This document shows positions 5,223 to 36,500 of a stretch of 64,000 nucleotides of DNA, in pieces. How positions within the stretch are numbered: position 1 is the first letter of the stretch; each line of letters begins with the position of its first letter. A program made the translations under genes and the position numbers. Under the pieces are notes generated by a model. That model was given only the letters and a program-made list of their open reading frames with translations, made no database searches and was not told where the DNA came from. The DNA comes from a virus: the IMG/VR virus record IMGVR_UViG_3300029928_000198; one strand, 5' to 3'.

Positions 5223-5241
5223 GCCGTCGTGCGTGTCCATG
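5223..5241 (-). repeat. Junction motif copy 3
   Basis: GCCGTCGTGCGTGTCCATG, identical to 2045-2063; intergenic. Confidence 0.75.
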
Positions 5242-6226: not shown

Positions 6227-6248
6227 GCTGTCGTGCATGCGTCCATGG
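6227..6248 (-). repeat. Junction motif copy 4 (2-nt longer variant)
   Basis: GCTGTCGTGCATGCGTCCATGG, just upstream of the AGGAGG RBS of the 6209 gene. Confidence 0.6.
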
Positions 6249-22533: not shown

Positions 22534-22558
22534 CCAAGAAAACGCAACCCCTTAAATA
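22534..22558. promoter_or_regulatory. Conserved BRE-TATA motif, divergent copy
   Basis: CCAAGAAAACGCAACCCCTTAAATA followed by CGGAGTCC, like CTTAAATAGAGTCC in the sRNA promoters. Confidence 0.5.
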
Positions 22559-22580
22559 CGGAGTCCAGAAGGCCGCATTC

Positions 22581-22810
22581 CGAGGCTGGAAGGAATCGGG
22601 AATCGGTGCGGTCCAGCATCAACTTTGAACTTTGCATCCGAATGCAAAGTTGTGCAAAGCTGCACATCCCGAGGTCACGAGAAGACGAGGCGGACTGCGA
22701 TTCCCGATCAGAGGGCATCGGAGGTCAAGGAGAATCGCGCTCCGCTTGATTTGCAGGCATACGTCGAATAACGAATTCGTCAATCGACGTCAGAAATCGA
22801 TGCCGGAAGG
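22581..22810 (+). ncRNA. Candidate structured non-coding RNA (or ssDNA structural element)
   Basis: 10-bp IR 22596-22605/22698-22707 encloses a 10-bp hairpin (22628-22651) and GTGCA/TGCAC; second domain GGCATCG/CGATGCC encloses ACGTCGA/TCGACGT; starts about 23 nt after the TATA box. Confidence 0.45.
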
Positions 22811-22870
22811 CCATGCAGAAACGGAAGCGGAGAAGTAAGGGGTTTCCCGGCTTGCGCCGGTAAGAGGCGA

Positions 22871-25745: not shown

Positions 25746-25823
25746 GGAAACATAGTCGGAAAACCATCTGGCCATCGCACAACCATTAAATAGCGTCCGG
25801 GTGAGAATCTACCGTCGATAACC

Positions 25824-29003: not shown

Positions 29004-30157
29004 AGGACCACCTCAACCGAGGACATGTCGGGCGCGAACTCCGCCTTCAGGTACGTCACGGATGTGAAGCGGCTCACGGATTCGAGCTTGGGGATGGTCA
29101 GCGTGTAGTTGCTGCATTCGACGCCCCCGTTCTCGTCCGGAGCTATCCTGATGCGCCTCATATCGCCCGACATCAGGACCCTGTAGCGGTCGGCCACGAA
29201 CCAGTCCGAGCTGATCGTGTGCTCGGAGTCCCTGCGGACGGTAACGCCGGGGCGGAAGACCTGCATGTATGCCGGCAATGACGCTTCTGGGTGGACGGCG
29301 GTCCTCCTGAACTCGGCCAGCTTCCTGCTCAGCGCGTCGATCAGACGCTCCTTCCCCTCCATCTCCTCCGCCTTGCTCTTCAACGCGGAATCCCTCTCCT
29401 CCAATGCAACGGCAAGGGACTTCCGCGATTCCTCCAGCTTCGCTTCCAGCTCCTTCTTCTCCGATTCGCCGGCCGAAGCCATGTCGGAGATCGTCCTGCC
29501 AAGCTCCGAAACCTGCTCCTCCATGCTCTTCCTGACGCCCTCCATCTCGGCGACCTTGGCTTCGGATTCCGTCAATGCCTTCCTCAGCACCTCGACCTCT
29601 TCCCTGTTGGGTTTGACGGACTTCTGGGCCAGCTTCTCCCTGAGCTTCGCTATGTCCGCATCCTTCTGGCGTATGGTGGCGTTGGCGTTGTCCAGCTTCT
29701 GCTTGTACATCGCGGCGACATTGTTCATCTCGCAGTTCATCTGCAAAAGCATCCCGCTCTTGGTCAGCGTCTCGCATAGCTCGGGGGAACACTTCATGAG
29801 GGCGTTGGCCAGCTCTATCGACGGCTTCCCGCCCTTCATGAAGATCCTCTTCAGGAACTCGAAGCGATCGGGAACCGACATCTCCAGAAAGAACTCCGCC
29901 CCGACCTTCTCTATCGGTATGGCGAAGTAGCAGTTCGATTCGATGCGCTTGTCCTTCAGGCGGACGAAGTAGGTCTCCCCGGGCTGGATGCTGACATCTG
30001 ACTGGCGGTCAACGTAGACCGTGACGCCCGAGTACGTGCTCTTCACGGAGCCGCTGCTGTCGCGGACGAAGGTGAGCGGGACGGCTGATGCCAGAGAAAC
30101 GACGGCGGGATCCCTCCTGTCGAATTCGACCTTGGGGCTTTCGGCCTTCGAGGTCAT
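29000..30157 (-). CDS. Coiled-coil protein with small beta domains at both ends
   Basis: Central E/K/L heptad region of about 150 aa. Confidence 0.75.
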   Translation of the reverse strand: MTSKAESPKVEFDRRDPAVVSLASAVPLTFVRDSSGSVKSTYSGVTVYVDRQSDVSIQPGETYFVRLKDKRIESNCYFAIPIEKVGAEFFLEMSVPDRFEFLKRIFMKGGKPSIELANALMKCSPELCETLTKSGMLLQMNCEMNNVAAMYKQKLDNANATIRQKDADIAKLREKLAQKSVKPNREEVEVLRKALTESEAKVAEMEGVRKSMEEQVSELGRTISDMASAGESEKKELEAKLEESRKSLAVALEERDSALKSKAEEMEGKERLIDALSRKLAEFRRTAVHPEASLPAYMQVFRPGVTVRRDSEHTISSDWFVADRYRVLMSGDMRRIRIAPDENGGVECSNYTLTIPKLESVSRFTSVTYLKAEFAPDMSSVEVVL

Positions 30158-30882
30158 GCAGCTGCCTCCGCCGCATCCTCGGATGTGATGGAAACGATGA
30201 ACGCATCATCGAGGATCGTCACCCTGTCGGCGACCCTGCGCATCTGGACGGCCAGCGAACGCTCGTAGGACATGATCTCGATCCTCTTTCCCAGAGCGCG
30301 GACGTACTCGATGGCCGGGATGAAGTCCCTGTCGCCCGAGATGATGACCGCCGTATCGTAGGAATCGTCCACGGCTCCGGCCATGAGCCGTGCGGCCAAG
30401 GCGACATCCACCTCCTTCTGATGCTCGGTATCGAAGATTTCCCTCAAATCCAGCCCCCAGCCGCTGTGCATCAACACATCGTGGAACGGCTTGGTGGTAT
30501 CCCGCTCTGCCGTGTATATGCGCCCGTCGAAGGCGGTGGCCTCCACCAGATGGCGTCCTGAAACGGCGACGTTCTTCAGCTCCGCGTAGTCGATGAGGAA
30601 TCCGCGCCTGCGGACCTCTTCGAGAACGTTGCGGACATCCAAGAACACGGAAACACGCTCCATATGCGTCCTTCCGGCCATCTCCAGCTCGGCCTTCAGG
30701 GACTCGTTCTCCTCGCGGAGCCTCACGATCTCCTCGGATTCCCCTCCGTCCAGAAACGTTCCGACGATCTCCCTCAGCGCGGCCGCTCTGGACGAGAACC
30801 TTCCGCTCCTGACCATCTCATCTATGGCTTGGGACTGGGCGGAGGTTATGCCGCTCGAAAGGATGCTGGTGCTCTGGTCCAT
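30154..30882 (-). CDS. RHH-coiled coil-NYN (LabA/DUF88, PIN-fold) fusion
   Basis: Start MDQSTS after GGAGG; AIDEMVRSGRFSSRAAALREIV (RHH); VFLDVRN...QKEVDVALA..L...YDTAVIISGDRDFIPAI (NYN). Confidence 0.85.
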   Translation of the reverse strand: MDQSTSILSSGITSAQSQAIDEMVRSGRFSSRAAALREIVGTFLDGGESEEIVRLREENESLKAELEMAGRTHMERVSVFLDVRNVLEEVRRRGFLIDYAELKNVAVSGRHLVEATAFDGRIYTAERDTTKPFHDVLMHSGWGLDLREIFDTEHQKEVDVALAARLMAGAVDDSYDTAVIISGDRDFIPAIEYVRALGKRIEIMSYERSLAVQMRRVADRVTILDDAFIVSITSEDAAEAAA

Positions 30883-31106: not shown

Positions 31107-31594
31107 CTGTGTGCCTCCCATTTTGGGATATGTGGTGTTCAGACCCGATGGGTCAGACGAAGAACGTACATCCTAATATTTAACGAATACCAAAATTCAA
31201 CTTTAGTTGAATAGTATTGAATCGTTCAAAGATTCAACAAACTGGGATTTTTATACGTTCCTAAAGATAGTCAAAAGCCCTGCCAGATTGCTGTGTGAAT
31301 GTGGTGTTCGTCGAATCTGGCGGGGTTCCGGTCAACAGAGGACCTTATCGACCCAAGGGCATCTGTCGCCTATGCTGAAGAACGCCACCGGGTCGGATTC
31401 CACCGACAGCACGGAGCCGTCGCACATGGAAAGGGAAAGACAATGCTCCGAAAGTGTAAGGCCCATGACGGAATCCATGCGATACGAGCGATCGCCGCAA
31501 TGGATCCTGTTACCGACTATTGCCGCTTTCTGCATGATTGTACAGTTTGGTGCGGTTTTATAAATGTTTTCCTATAAAGGACAATTTATCACAA

Positions 31595-31699
31595 AAAGGA
31601 AAAGACGGAAGCAACGAAGATAATGGGGTCCCCGTGCGGAACACGGGGTCTTGCCGGCTCGACACGGCAAGATAGGTTAGGACCATTGGATTGCTTCCG
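31595..31699 (-). ncRNA. Candidate small RNA C (about 100 nt): paired ends, two apical hairpins, U-tail
   Basis: CGGAAGCAA/UUGCUUCCG closing stem (31691-99/31606-14); 8-bp and 7-bp hairpins; 5' end about 23 nt from TATA at 31722-29; UUUUCCUUUUU tail. Confidence 0.6.
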
Positions 31700-31715
31700 G
31701 AAGGCTATTGCCTCC

Positions 31716-31741
31716 GGACTCTATTTAAGAACCGTGGCGAT
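31716..31741 (-). promoter_or_regulatory. sRNA promoter, direct repeat copy 1
   Basis: GGACTCTATTTAAGAACCGTGGCGAT, 24/26 identical to 31986-32011. Confidence 0.65.
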
Positions 31742-31742
31742 T

Positions 31743-31796
31743 GACCGCGCGGCCATTCAATAAGGGACGACCGCGCGGAATGACAAACATCGTCCC
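31743..31796 (-). ncRNA. Candidate small RNA B (about 35-55 nt)
   Basis: Starts GGGACGA 23 nt after TATA at 31819-26 and pairs with UCGUCCC; two CCGCGCGG palindromes give an alternative fold. Confidence 0.45.
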
Positions 31797-31836
31797 GATT
31801 TACAATCGGGCATCGGATTATTTAAGGATTCTATCA

Positions 31837-31968
31837 AAATTGTGATTCGTGGCCGGACAGCGTCCCATCCTCGTGATGCCGGCCACTGCGATCCGCGATT
31901 GGACAAGAAGGTGCTGCGCACGCACGACAGGTGGTCCAATGCGCAGCGTGTGTCCATGGACACGGACC
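31837..31968 (-). ncRNA. Candidate small RNA A (about 130 nt), pseudoknot-capable, complementary to the junction motif
   Basis: 5' end about 24 nt after TATA at 31992-99; GUGUCCAUGGACAC palindrome; crossing stems GCUGCGCA/UGCGCAGC and AUUGGAC/GUCCAAU; GUGGCCGG/CCGGCCAC hairpin then UUUU. Confidence 0.6.
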
Positions 31969-31985
31969 GAATCCTCAGTTCCCGA

Positions 31986-32011
31986 GGACTCTATTTAAGC
32001 ACCATGGCGAT
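31986..32011 (-). promoter_or_regulatory. sRNA promoter, direct repeat copy 2
   Basis: GGACTCTATTTAAGCACCATGGCGAT. Confidence 0.65.
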
Positions 32012-32034
32012 GGGCCTGCTGGACTTCCCGCTCG

Positions 32035-32127
32035 TCACTTGTTCCTCCTCTCATGGTAGATCGTGTAGACGAAAACCCCGAACGTCAATACCGTCATGAA
32101 CACGGTCAGCATGACCATCAGATACAT
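32035..32127 (-). CDS. 30-aa single-TM peptide
   Basis: Below the ORF-track cutoff: MYLMVMLTVFMTVLTFGVFVYTIYHERRNK; GGAGGTGG RBS. Confidence 0.6.
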   Translation of the reverse strand: MYLMVMLTVFMTVLTFGVFVYTIYHERRNK

Positions 32128-32624
32128 CGGACCACCTCCACTTCCCAGAAAGGATGCGACCTCGGCGACTCACCGGCGACCCAGCAGACATCGCGGTTCT
32201 CCCCGAACGTCGGTTCCAGATCGACCTTCACCGCCTTCAGATTCGACCTGCTCACCGATTGGTCCGACGCATACCGCGATTTGGCCGACTCCTCGGAGAA
32301 GAGCTTCGCATCGAAGTAGAACACCGAATCCCCCTCGCTGCTGTACATGATGGGATTCGCAGTGCTGATCGGCTTCCACCCCACGGTCAGAGCGGAACCC
32401 GGGGTGAAGAAGTCGGAACCCGGCGGGATGCCGCGCGTCCACATCCCGTCGTCGTTGACGAATCCCACGGAATCGGTTCTGGTCCTTCCCAGACGGTACA
32501 GCTTCGCGCTGAATCCGCAGCGTTTCTCCTGAAGCAGATTGAACGCCCGAACCCTAGCGTCCCTTATCAGGTCGCATTCGGCCAGCGCATGGGTCCCGTC
32601 GGGGAATTCCACGAAGTAAGGCAT
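32118..32624 (-). CDS. Hypothetical protein
   Basis: Start moved to MPYFVEF. Confidence 0.65.
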   Translation of the reverse strand: MPYFVEFPDGTHALAECDLIRDARVRAFNLLQEKRCGFSAKLYRLGRTRTDSVGFVNDDGMWTRGIPPGSDFFTPGSALTVGWKPISTANPIMYSSEGDSVFYFDAKLFSEESAKSRYASDQSVSRSNLKAVKVDLEPTFGENRDVCWVAGESPRSHPFWEVEVVRCI

Positions 32625-32983
32625 CGGTCTTCGCCTCCGGAGGACATCTCGTCCCTCCAAGCCAGCATGGCTTCGAAGGGCGTATCTCCGATCTTCGAGG
32701 ACGCCTTGCACTTCGGACAGATGAAGCAGTACCCCTTGCCGCTGGGAATCCTTTCGGTTCCGAGTACGGGTGAAACCTTGCACCTCCTGCATTCGGCCAT
32801 CGGCCAAGGTATTTCCTTCGGGTCCTCCGCCCACAATCCGGCCGCCTTGCGGAGATTCTGGGCCGATACGGTCCGATGGCATCTCGTGCAGGTCATCCTG
32901 CATCCCGATGCGACATCCAGAGTCATGCGCGACGACCCGCAGTACCTGCAGCACGAGATCTCCGTCATCGGAGGGTCCCCCAT
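32567..32983 (-). CDS. Protein with two Lar-like Zn ribbons
   Basis: CRYC..CTRC..AAGLW and CRRC..CPKC..EAMLAW. Confidence 0.6.
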   Translation of the reverse strand: MGDPPMTEISCCRYCGSSRMTLDVASGCRMTCTRCHRTVSAQNLRKAAGLWAEDPKEIPWPMAECRRCKVSPVLGTERIPSGKGYCFICPKCKASSKIGDTPFEAMLAWRDEMSSGGEDRCLTSWNSPTGPMRWPNAT

Positions 32984-33324
32984 CTTCTCTCCAAGGCATC
33001 GGCCAGAACCTCGACATGCTCCTTCGGGACATCCATCTTAACCATGGAGCCGTCCGACGATATGCTGGCCACGACCATCCCGTAATCCGACGGGGAAACG
33101 GTCCACGACCGGGTTCCGTTTCCGAACTCGTGGACCCCTTCGCCGTCCTCGATGACGCGCATCATTCCCACGATGTCGGAGATCTGGAGCGATGAGGACG
33201 CATTGATGCAGATTCCGTTGTACAAGCTGCTCAGGTGTATCGCGGCCGAATCGAACTGATCGTCGTAGACAATCCTCAGGTCATCGTCCGTTCCCGCGTA
33301 ATGCCATACATCGACCGTCGCCAT
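32965..33324 (-). CDS. Hypothetical protein
   Basis: AGGAGG RBS; first gene of the operon. Confidence 0.7.
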   Translation of the reverse strand: MATVDVWHYAGTDDDLRIVYDDQFDSAAIHLSSLYNGICINASSSLQISDIVGMMRVIEDGEGVHEFGNGTRSWTVSPSDYGMVVASISSDGSMVKMDVPKEHVEVLADALERRWGTLR

Positions 33325-33507: not shown

Positions 33508-36500
33508 TCAGAACAGACCGAGCAGGCGGGCCGCCAAGATGAGAACTATCGCGATCACGGCAATCGCGGCAATCGCCTTGATGATGCCCGACATGTCCGA
33601 GGACTCCTCCGATTCCTCGATCGTCACCGAAACCGTATCGGAATGAACCCTGTCGTTCGCGCTGTAGACGGTCAGCTTGACCACGTAGGTTCCGGATTCG
33701 GAGTAGGTGTGCTCGCCCTTGACGTCCCAAGACGATGTGCCGTCTCCGAACGTCCAGAGGACCTTCGCATAACCTCCCGACTCCGAGGCGTCGTAGCTTA
33801 TGGTCTTCCCTTTCACATCGACCTCGGGAACGGCCTTCAGGGTCCCCTCCTTCTCCCAGTAGGCGTACAGGGTGTACTTGCCGTCATCGCCGTAGTACAC
33901 CGTTACGATCTCGCCCGGCTGATGGAGAACCGGCTTGACAAGGCTCTCCGTCCATCCGACGAACGTGTATCCTTCGCGGACCGGCTTTCCCTCAGGAAGC
34001 AGGAAATTGACCGAGCCTTCGGACGATGCCTGCGGCTCCACGGTCGGCGCATCCTTCCCGCCGTTGGGGTCCAGAATCAAGGTGAAGACTCTGGAGTTCT
34101 CTCCCTCCGCCCAAACCGCATATATCGTCCTGACGCCATCCACGCTGTTCTTCGCGGTCACGAAGACGTACGATCCAGCAGTATAGTTCACACCGTCGCC
34201 ATCTTTATGGTCGGACCATCCTAGGAAGGTGAATCCCTTGCGGGTGGGCTTCTCCGTCGGAACCTCGAACTTCGCCGAGTCCCCATAGGTCTTCACCGGA
34301 TTGGCAACGGGGCCGCCCTCCCCTCCGTTGGGGTCGTAGATCAGTCTGAATGTCAGTTCGATGTGAAGCCTCTCCCATACGGCGTAAAGATATGTGGTTC
34401 CGGGTCTCTCTGCCTTGAACTTCGAACCGGGCTGATAATCGGCTGCTCCATCCTCAGCGGTCGCCCAACCCTTGAACCCGTATCCCTCCTTCACGGGAAT
34501 GTCCGCAGGTATCGTGAACTCGTGACCGTCCAATCCGCCGTTCTCGACGAGATCGGACGGCCCGTCGGTACCGTCTATCAGCTTGAATGAAAGCCTGTAC
34601 TCGGTATCGCCCTGCCATACGGCATAGAGCGTCGTTTTCTGAAGGGATGCCTTGTATGAATCCCCGGGCTGATAGGTTGCATCTCCGCCCTTCTCGTCAG
34701 CCCATCCAGCGAAGGAGTATCCCTCCTTCACGGGTATGTCCGCAGGGATCGTGAAGGTGTACTGGCCCCTAGACTTTCCGCTCTGAGGGGTGGGTCCGTT
34801 GGAACCGCCCATGAGGTCGAAGTTCAGCGTGTATGTCACTTCTGGATCGTTCGACCATTTGGCGTAGAGCGTGGTCGTACCGGGCTTCAGGACGATGGAA
34901 TCGCCCGGCTGGTAGGCGACCTTGCCGTTCGGCTCGGTTGCCCACCCTTGGAAGAGTCCTTCTTCGCTCTTCGGGATGCCTGCCGGAACGGTCGTCTTGT
35001 ACTCTCCGCGTCCATAGAACGGACCGATGGCGGAAGGTCCGTCGGTGCCGCCCATGAGGTTGAAGTTCAGGAAGAAGGAATCCTTCGGAGTCTCCTTCCA
35101 TACTGCATGGAGCGTGCTCGTGGGGGACGAGGTCGTGAACTCGCCGCCTGCTGCGATGGATGCTTCGGTCGCGCTCTTGCTCGTGGACCATCCGAGGAAC
35201 ACATGGTCCTCCCAGACGGGTGCATCGTCGGGTATGGCGAACGTATGCGAATATCCGGGGGCCTCCTCGGTGATGGAAGAAGGCTCTCCGGTACCGCCGT
35301 TGGCGTCGAAGTTCAGCGTCCAAGTCTTCTTGTCATCTACCCAGACGGCATAGATGATCGGATTCCTCTCTGAGGTCACGATCGTGGAACCGCCCTTGTA
35401 CTCGGCAATGCCGGACGCATCGGGGTTCTTCGACCAGCCTACGAACAGGCATCCCTCTCTGACCGGAATCTGCGTAGAAACGATGAACGTGCAGGTCTCA
35501 TAGCCCTGCTTGGTGACCGGCTCGGGAACATTCGTCGCATCGGACGCATTACCGTTGTAGGTCAGCATGTACGTAACGGACCTCATGCTCCATACGGCGA
35601 AGAGTTCGGTGGTCGTGGATTTCAGCACGACGTTTGCTTCGCCCTTGGAATAAAGTGGCTGGCTGCTGTCGCTCCTGTCCGACCAGCCGAGGAAGTCGTA
35701 TCCGTCCCTGACGGGTTCCTTGGTGCTCAGGGTGACAGAGGCCTCCTTGCCCTCATCGACGGTGACCGTCTGCTTCTCGGGCGCGTCCTTGCCGCCGTTG
35801 GCGTTGTAGATCAGGGTGTAGGTGATCTTGGCGACATTCTTGGTCCATACGGCGTACAGCGTCGCGCTGTCGCATGTGAACTTACCTCCGGGGCTGTACT
35901 CGACATCCCCGTTGTAGGATGTGGACCATCCCGCGAACGTGTATCCGTCCTTCGTCGGGATGAAATCGGACGGTATGGTGAACGTGTAGCCTCCCGAAGA
36001 GCCGTAGCCTGTCAGCGTCCTGTTCTCCCCGTTCCCGCCGTTGACGTTCAGGATGAGCACGTAGCTCACCTGCTTCCAGACGGCGTAGAGGGTCTTGGTT
36101 CCGGGGGAAAGGGTGATCTTGTCACCTGCGAAGTACCTGACGGTGTCGGTTCCTGCGGATTCGCCCCATCCTCTGAAGTCGAATCCGGCCTTCTTGGGTG
36201 CTCCCTCGGGTATCTCCGTCTCGTAGCTGCGCTTCTCGCTCTTGAAATGTATGTCGCCCGGACCGTCGGTTCCGCCGTCCAGATCGAATTCGAGATTGAA
36301 CTCGTACTCGGTGACGGTCTCCTTCCATACGGCGTAGAGCGTGGTGGGCGTCGAATAGATCGTTATGGAGCCTCCGGGCTGGAACGAGGCCGTAGAGGAC
36401 CCGGACGTCTTGGTCCATCCGAGGAATTCGTATCCCTCCCTGACAGGCTTCGTGCTGCTGATCGTGAAGGTCGCCGAAGCCGCTCCCGAGGTCACCAGCT

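Follow-up and report, generated by a model that had tools for sequence, protein, structure and literature searches.

A conserved array of structured RNA units, each preceded by a TATA-type box, on a mobile element probably of archaea

Gene content of the locus and its relatives

The array described here lies on the minus strand of a 64,000-nt stretch of viral DNA (IMG/VR record IMGVR_UViG_3300029928_000198), the whole of which is referred to as the window. It fills a region of about 440–500 nt without a credible gene, located between a 30-aa peptide gene (32035–32127) and a 67-aa gene (31332–31535). The 67-aa gene carries its own A-rich/TATA promoter (31332–31564 with promoter included; box at 31557–31564, ATG at 31535, box-to-ATG distance of 22 nt) and serves as a fixed landmark downstream of the arrays. 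It is followed by a MazE-like gene, an NYN gene and a coiled-coil gene. The downstream proteins match NYN (PF01936) and, weakly, a MazE/AbrB-like antitoxin fold, and analysis with PADLOC reported only HEC-09 and NYN. The structural model of the 67-aa protein is confident (pLDDT 92.5) and adopts a small PH-like fold, for which the best PDB matches were weak PH-like or FtsH N-domain hits (E above 0.04) without any functional hint.

Upstream of the array, the 30-aa gene encodes a hydrophobic membrane micropeptide, has a good ribosome-binding site and overlaps the end of the gene before it. A micropeptide gene of 30–34 aa is kept after a 168–174-aa gene in L001–L003, L067–L069 and L072. The ORF of 304 aa at 32118–33032 (minus) probably represents a pair of overlapping genes (138 and 168 aa), which is how gene calls divide it on every related contig; the database protein P0001 covers only the 168-aa part.

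Many genes of the element belong to no known family. Those that could be assigned include several Flg_new/PKD adhesin-like proteins, DNA methylases, a restriction enzyme and zinc-ribbon proteins, and TATA-type promoter boxes on the element sit at leaderless or short-leader spacing. From this gene content and box spacing we infer that this large mobile element likely has an archaeal host, although no taxon was obtained. The adhesin type and a GC content of about 58% are compatible with a gut or rumen methanogen, for example a member of the Methanomassiliicoccales, as one possibility.

To place the array in a comparative setting, related loci were found through homologues of the neighbouring NYN protein (56–68% identical), giving syntenic contigs of other samples that represent six diverged lineages: L066, L067 (L067–L069), L070 (L070/L071), L072 (L072–L075), L076 and L077 (L077/L078). 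Contigs of distant lineages include GCA_963607185.1 contig CAVDBZ010000001.1, SRR22923250_7342, ERZ15610001 NODE_2151 and SRR14369170_78116. All six keep the 67-aa/MazE-like/NYN/coiled-coil operon with a long gene-free stretch upstream, and in 6/6 an array of 2–8 units occupies the same place, just upstream of the 67-aa gene. We designate the unit types A, B, C and D. Two units (A and B) are present in L066, L067 and L070, five in L077, six in L072 and eight in L076. The order in the relatives is A, B, several D, C and then the 67-aa gene; type D is absent from the window, and nhmmer profiles of the four types detected no further copies there. In L076, three further box-preceded units (within 897–985 and 1450–1660) fall outside types A–D, so the RNA family exceeds the four described types. 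After the last unit of the same array, a hairpin loop (L076:1880–1920) shows a copy of the loop-1 sequence of unit A.

The element's DNA occurs in ERZ26859174, ERZ26858495, SRR29834378, ERZ808262 and ERZ808244. Five closer relatives (L001–L003, L079 and L081) are 95–99% identical to the window and give no covariation. Compared with L003, the array is not more conserved than its flanks, the divergence lying in the adhesin gene; all four substitutions within the array fall at unpaired positions. The differences from L003 over 34000–35100 concentrate in the 1531-aa adhesin gene (51–86 per 250 nt vs 0–8 elsewhere), which makes this region a hypervariable or exchanged module. Other searches gave no further relatives: scanning genome and viral collections at the protein level, with the flanking genes as queries, found none, blastn of a phage collection gave no match, and a 14-nt box pattern yielded 62 matches in viral contigs, all of them chance matches without extended similarity. 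The conserved core of unit B was absent from species genomes and viral contigs, and among metagenome contigs was found only in the near-identical L079.

Boxes, repeats and predicted start geometry

The box CTTAAATA occurs on the minus strand at 31992–31999, 31819–31826 and 31722–31729, upstream of units A, B and C, respectively. The window contains seven copies in total vs 0.42 expected, a number reached in 0/100 shuffles. The boxes of A and C are embedded in a 31-nt direct repeat, with copy 1 at 31986–32016 (promoter region of unit A) and copy 2 at 31716–31746 (promoter region of unit C), 270 nt apart and identical at 27/31 positions (87%). A 25-nt consensus of this repeat matched only these two array sites in the window vs 0 expected, and the extended box motif matched the two array sites and one other site within the 64 kb.

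The boxes are conserved in the relatives. A box homologous to that of unit A, with its adjacent GAGC/GCGC, is kept in all of them, and the box of unit B (TTTAAATA or CTTAAATA) is invariant in 7/7 lineages. An A-rich, BRE-like stretch lies just upstream of the unit B box in the window and in all lineages; units A and C lack one. Across the relatives' units the boxes vary only among A/T (TTAAATA, TTATATA, TTTTATA), followed by GAGC or GCGC.

The strands of the first helices begin at G31968 (A), G31796 (B) and G31698/C31699 (C), at 23, 22 and 23 nt, respectively, past the last base of the box (22–24 nt overall), and the predicted start G of all three window units is preceded by a pyrimidine. The same spacing of 22–24 nt from box to first conserved helix strand was found in 21/21 pattern-classified units, and inspection by eye of window A, window C and L076 A gave 23 nt. 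A promoter-driven archaeal small RNA is expected to have a TATA box about 22–27 nt upstream of a purine start, and this holds for the window units and for the classified units of the relatives. The array spacing agrees with the start geometry found elsewhere on the element: the box of the 67-aa gene is 22 nt from its ATG, and on the plus strand a called 71-aa gene begins 29 nt after a box of this kind at 25785.

A first-pass annotation, made without database searches, had placed three boxes at exactly the minus-strand positions above, and these held. It had also reported repeats of 24/26 identity at two of them, which is essentially right (27/31 over the longer alignment), and first helices beginning about 23–24 nt downstream at 31968, 31796 and 31699, which held within 22–24 nt, with C beginning at 31698/31699. 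This spacing had been its main evidence, and the spacing is now supported by every classified unit of the relatives. The claim that the units are TATA-driven is inferred from motif, spacing and conservation; expression is not shown.

The spacers between box and start carry features of their own. Those of A (31969–31991) and C (31699–31719), both minus and 23 nt from box to start, each contain a short inverted repeat, of different sequence in the two cases, and spacers of several relatives' units also contain short inverted repeats. Conceivably, these are operator sites for a repressor acting between TATA box and start. Elsewhere in the window, a further CTTAAATA box (22551–22558, plus) is followed by a 290-nt gene-free segment (22551–22870) with a fold z of -2.7 vs shuffles. 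This segment could be another promoter-driven RNA, and its sequence is unrelated to units A–D.

Structures of the units and absence of coding signal

The core RNA of unit A, about 70 nt (31899–31968, minus), forms an H-type pseudoknot, as established from alignment A4 and pair counts. Helix P1 pairs 31964–31968 with 31933–31937, with 100% of cells paired and 3/7 pairs changed on both sides, while helix P2 pairs 31940–31947 with 31913–31920, with 84.5% of cells paired and 7/12 pairs changed on both sides. Loop 1 (31950–31963) is a palindrome with an invariant GUCCAUG, loop 3 (31921–31932) contains an invariant GUCRUGCG, and a pyrimidine tract (31905–31912) follows the pseudoknot. Overall, 10/19 pairs are compensated and 89.6% of cells pair, values reached in 0/500 shuffles, and controls with slid partners lowered the pairing to 32–52%. 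G-U cells (10) exceed A-C cells (4), which favours the minus strand as the transcribed one. A 3' extension (31836–31886), comprising a hairpin (31849–31886) and then UUUU (31836–31839), is confined to the window lineage and is variable or absent in the relatives, which places it outside the conserved core.

The RNA of unit B, about 56 nt (31741–31796, minus), is supported as a pseudoknot only in part. Helix P2 (31771–31778 with 31745–31752), which crosses P1, has an invariant palindromic core with covarying flanks, where four pairs are changed on both sides. Helix P1 (31790–31796 with 31764–31770) is invariant, retaining a 5-bp pairing throughout alignment A3, and has no covariation support; a small alternative hairpin that competes with it cannot be excluded. 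The 16-nt segment at the 5' end (31781–31796) is the same in seven lineages except for one G/A position.

Unit C, about 105 nt (31593–31698, minus), is organized differently. A 9-bp terminal stem (31691–31699 with 31606–31614) encloses two hairpins, H1 (31649–31672) and H2 (31630–31648), and is followed by a U-rich tail (31593–31605). Three lineages (L072, L076 and L077) have both hairpins, built from other stem sequences and placed after a 5' hairpin that starts at the predicted +1. The comparative support for this unit is thin, amounting to four sequences and one clearly compensated pair; its fold z of -5.7 to -6.4 vs shuffles is the strongest of the three in single-sequence folding (B, -2.6 to -3.0; A, -1.2 to -2.1; whole array, -4.9). 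In the D-type units, which occur only in relatives, the first six or seven nucleotides pair with the loop of a 3' hairpin, and this pairing covaries in 7/7 units through changes from A-U to C-G or G-U. Runs of U follow A (31836–31839) and C (31593–31605); after B no clear run of U is present. All four unit types carry, in unpaired loops, a short motif that includes AUG.

The only sizeable ORF in the array (31757–31963, 68 aa, spanning A and B) has a GC3 of 0.59 and a GC2 of 0.57, vs 0.68–0.86 and 0.40–0.49 in the neighbouring genes, and was not called by gene callers on any related contig. Short ORFs that begin at AUGs inside the conserved loops differ in length between lineages, and the invariant nucleotides, including the loop-3 motif of A, are read in different frames in different lineages. 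Because the frames shift, the GC3 is that of non-coding sequence and the L003 substitutions are all unpaired, we consider it very likely that the units are non-coding and reject the possibility of small protein genes.

No described RNA family accounts for the array. Rfam 15 at the gathering threshold gave no match in the window or the six related loci. Relaxing the cutoff to E up to 10 on 31300–32300 returned three noise matches (14–17 bits vs thresholds of 34–90), and E up to 5 on the L076 array returned none. ARAGORN found 0 tRNA or tmRNA genes in the window and seven related loci. The array is real, conserved and in no described family, and a search of the literature found no description of such arrays.

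Several specific candidates were tried and rejected. For an archaeal C/D-box sRNA, neither strand of the array contains the C-box sequence (RUGAUGA/UGAUGA), the single copy of the D-box sequence CUGA (31978) precedes the point at which A is predicted to start, and no snoRNA match in Rfam rose beyond noise. For an archaeal H/ACA sRNA, ACA occurs only at 31953 (in loop 1 of A) and 31843, and the hairpin at 31849–31886 lacks a two-sided pocket and is not conserved. A CRISPR array would need identical repeats of 24–48 nt with unique spacers of like length between them; here there are just two 31-nt repeats, 270 nt apart and 87% identical, separated by segments that are conserved and structured across lineages. 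An integron reading was also rejected.

The structural claims of the first-pass annotation largely survived the comparison with related elements, in which the helices of A and B keep pairing through two-sided changes. Its crossing stems in A proved to be a pseudoknot in which both helices covary; the 3' hairpin and UUUU that it added are present, in the window lineage only. The GGGACGA/UCGUCCC stem that it drew in B corresponds to P1, which is invariant and so remains without covariation support. For C, the 9-bp end-pairing, two hairpins and U-tail held in the window, with H1 and H2 recurring in three lineages. Its statements that no credible ORF covers the array and that the folds match no recognised class also held, the former given the non-coding composition and lack of a conserved frame of the 68-aa ORF, and the latter by covariance search with Rfam in window and relatives. 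The overall interpretation is supported, with transcription itself inferred and not shown.

Candidate targets, proposed function and comparison with known systems

A 16-nt motif is present in three exact copies and one variant in the window, a total of four that 0/100 shuffles reached. The copies lie 35–45 nt before start codons at gene junctions 26–30 kb from the array, all on the minus strand. Copy 1 (2048–2063) forms the loop of a hairpin whose stem includes the Shine-Dalgarno sequence, and copy 2 (2864–2879) has the same layout; at copy 3 (5226–5241), bases flanking the motif on its 5' side are paired with the region around the following gene's start codon. The variant copy 4 (6230–6247) is a further candidate target. 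A 12-mer of unit A in loop 1 and a 10-mer in loop 3 are complementary to the two halves of this motif, and the complementary stretches are the invariant single-stranded columns of the A alignment. Searching with the 165-aa gene that follows copy 3 led to two close loci and to one distant element, L082, whose homologous protein is 37% identical. There the corresponding junction carries this motif pattern, again base-paired to the start codon, and the second half of its motif is the exact complement of the loop-3 variant in the type of RNA A found in L072, L076 and L077. In L080 (93% identical), the motif has two substitutions.

Several points temper this match. Chance alone often yields complementary 10–12-mers between array RNAs and the window, a palindrome accounts for part of the match of A to the motif, which is therefore also a same-sense identity, and on the target the two complementary stretches share 4 nt. 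For unit B, no complement of its invariant loop was found in the window, and no candidate target emerged for unit C. That A acts as a base-pairing sRNA on the junction motifs is a proposal that rests, within the window, on the complementarity of its conserved unpaired loops and on the junction folds, with the motif pattern recurring in L082.

Two further observations concern these sites. The 16-nt motif begins with AUG, which would create a mini-ORF of five codons at copy 2 and extend the N-terminus in frame at copy 1; a role as upstream ORF or in translational coupling (window copies; L082:654–670) competes with sRNA targeting as an explanation. In all lineages seen, a 7-nt stretch that contains the start codon of the coiled-coil gene is complementary to loop 3 of the A-type RNAs (window 30155–30161, minus; L070:5784, L072:5718, L076:3422, L077:5594), with one G-U pair to the window's own RNA A, although the sequence is too short to weigh.

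Our preferred explanation, which we hold with moderate confidence, is that 31593–32016 on the minus strand is a cassette of three separate genes for structured small non-coding RNAs acting in trans. The motifs, spacing, conservation, covariation, lack of coding signal and complementarity are shown; transcription, the RNA ends, the action in trans and the direction of regulation are inferred. In this model, the three genes belong to a cassette family carried by one group of large mobile elements. Each unit would be transcribed from its own TATA-type box, starting at a G 22–24 nt downstream, and the transcripts would end in a pyrimidine- or U-rich tract, so that A, B and C would measure about 70, 56 and 105 nt, respectively. 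Every RNA would begin directly within a helix, namely a pseudoknot stem in A and B and the terminal stem in C, which would stabilise the RNA and display its conserved unpaired loops. The RNAs would most likely act in trans on gene expression of the element itself.

For unit A, a more detailed proposal can be made. From general H-type pseudoknot geometry, in which loop 1 starts and loop 3 ends where the two stacked helices join, we infer that the invariant loops L1 and L3 of A would leave the pseudoknot at one junction and together pair with both halves of the 16-nt motif. A contiguous target could then bridge the two loops where they meet, pairing with each and creating a four-way junction. 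Pairing at the motif would open the hairpins hiding the ribosome-binding site or start codon, changing translation. A bolder reading, which we regard as possible, is a cassette of up to eight different self-promoted RNAs, in which the 5'-terminal pseudoknot of A would join two seed loops to capture one mRNA loop as a four-way junction, unlocking hidden ribosome-binding sites in a set of the element's genes.

Four rival explanations were weighed against this cassette of trans-acting RNA genes. The strongest, which we still consider unlikely, is that the RNAs act as decoys, titrating a protein or host factor much as CsrB/RsmZ or RNA anti-defence decoys do, with the loops as protein sites and the junction motif as the mimicked natural site. 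In its favour, 11 nt of unit A repeat the opening part of the junction motif in the same sense, the AUG-containing motif recurs in unpaired loops of all four unit types, the 16-nt segment of B is conserved apart from its one G/A position without a complementary site in the window, and several different RNAs in one cassette would suit titration. However, loop 3 of A is the reverse complement, and not a copy, of the second half of the motif, which mimicry leaves unexplained, and no RNA-binding protein was identified, the PH-like model of the 67-aa protein giving no informative match. An RNA-antitoxin-like partnership with the downstream NYN nuclease, following type III logic with pseudoknots that inhibit or are processed by the nuclease, appears very unlikely. 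It would account for a pseudoknot array with a U-rich stop beside an operon with MazE/AbrB-like and NYN nuclease genes, kept in all lineages, and ToxI antitoxins are also tandem pseudoknot RNAs. Against it, the units differ in sequence and length (56–105 nt) and each has its own box, unlike identical repeats under one promoter; no toxin of the ToxN/CptN/TenpN or AbiEii type is present; and the association with NYN is partly built in, since the relatives were found through the NYN gene. Moreover, array and nuclease are kept apart by the 67-aa gene, which has a promoter of its own, and in L066 a reverse gene stands between them.

A third possibility, likewise very unlikely, is that the boxes are not promoters, the array being a single precursor or a DNA element (origin, packaging or recombination) in which the box is a site of processing or protein binding. 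The near-confinement of the extended box motif to the arrays, the inverted repeats in the 23-nt spacers of window A and C and the lack of an A-rich upstream element in these two units speak for it. On the other hand, compensated RNA helices begin 22–24 nt after each box, the box varies only among A/T, as for TBP binding and unlike a sequence-specific site, and unit B has both an A-rich stretch and a TATA box; there is also no turn in GC skew at the array, and a unit spacing of 90–150 nt is unlike that of iterons. Nevertheless, the A/T-rich boxes are nearly symmetric and A and C are without a BRE-like stretch, so one precursor with processing is not excluded. The near-symmetry of the box also bears on a type I toxin–antitoxin arrangement, in which the boxes fire on the plus strand to give an antisense RNA to the 30-aa hydrophobic peptide gene, which has a good ribosome-binding site and ends 35 nt from box 1. 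This arrangement is all but ruled out: L066, L067, L070 and L076 have other genes, some reversed, between array and micropeptide gene; it is the minus strand, downstream of the boxes, that carries the conserved helices, G-U pairs and U tails, with nothing conserved on the other side; and the conserved structure is on the same strand as the peptide gene, downstream of it.

If the cassette of trans-acting RNAs controls translation of element genes, it would show RNA coordination of genes in a large archaeal mobile element, and the bolder reading, if true, would represent a mode of RNA–RNA recognition and a regulatory architecture undescribed in archaea or their viruses. To our knowledge, very few regulatory RNAs from archaeal viruses and plasmids have been reported, and hardly any archaeal small RNA has a tertiary structure supported by covariation. 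At least four new families of structured RNA emerge from the locus (A, B and C from the window, D from the relatives), together with a sharply defined promoter-to-start geometry and a concrete candidate RNA–target pair. It would also provide a compact new pseudoknot scaffold for structural biology, and the conserved box with its fixed spacing could help to annotate promoters in such elements.

Among known systems, phage tRNA arrays and archaeal C/D and H/ACA guide RNAs resemble the array as clusters of stable RNA genes of 55–105 nt, and archaeal guide RNA genes each have their own promoter, as proposed here; the array contains no tRNA, C box or Rfam snoRNA match beyond noise. CsrB/RsmZ share a repeated short motif in unpaired loops of structured small RNAs, whereas here the motif is spread over several RNAs and has an antisense match to mRNA sites, and the partner protein is unidentified. 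The ToxI antitoxins are also tandem small pseudoknotted RNAs upstream of a nuclease operon on a mobile element, but their units are identical 34–36-nt repeats within one transcript cut by ToxN, in contrast to the differing units with their own boxes found here, and the nuclease in the present locus is an NYN-domain protein behind two other genes. A further likeness is to sRNAs that act in trans to free a ribosome-binding site blocked within its own mRNA, such as DsrA and RprA acting on rpoS in E. coli, and archaeal sRNAs like those of Methanosarcina mazei and Haloferax volcanii; none of the described sRNAs is related to the array RNAs by sequence or in Rfam. Common to both are an own promoter and a U-rich stop (predicted here), a length of 50–110 nt and, as proposed for unit A, a conserved unpaired seed with complementarity beside a hairpin hiding a Shine-Dalgarno sequence or start codon. 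In the array, by contrast, the putative seed would be divided between two loops of a 5'-terminal pseudoknot, brought together where the helices join, and several unrelated RNAs are arranged head to tail in one cassette of a mobile element.
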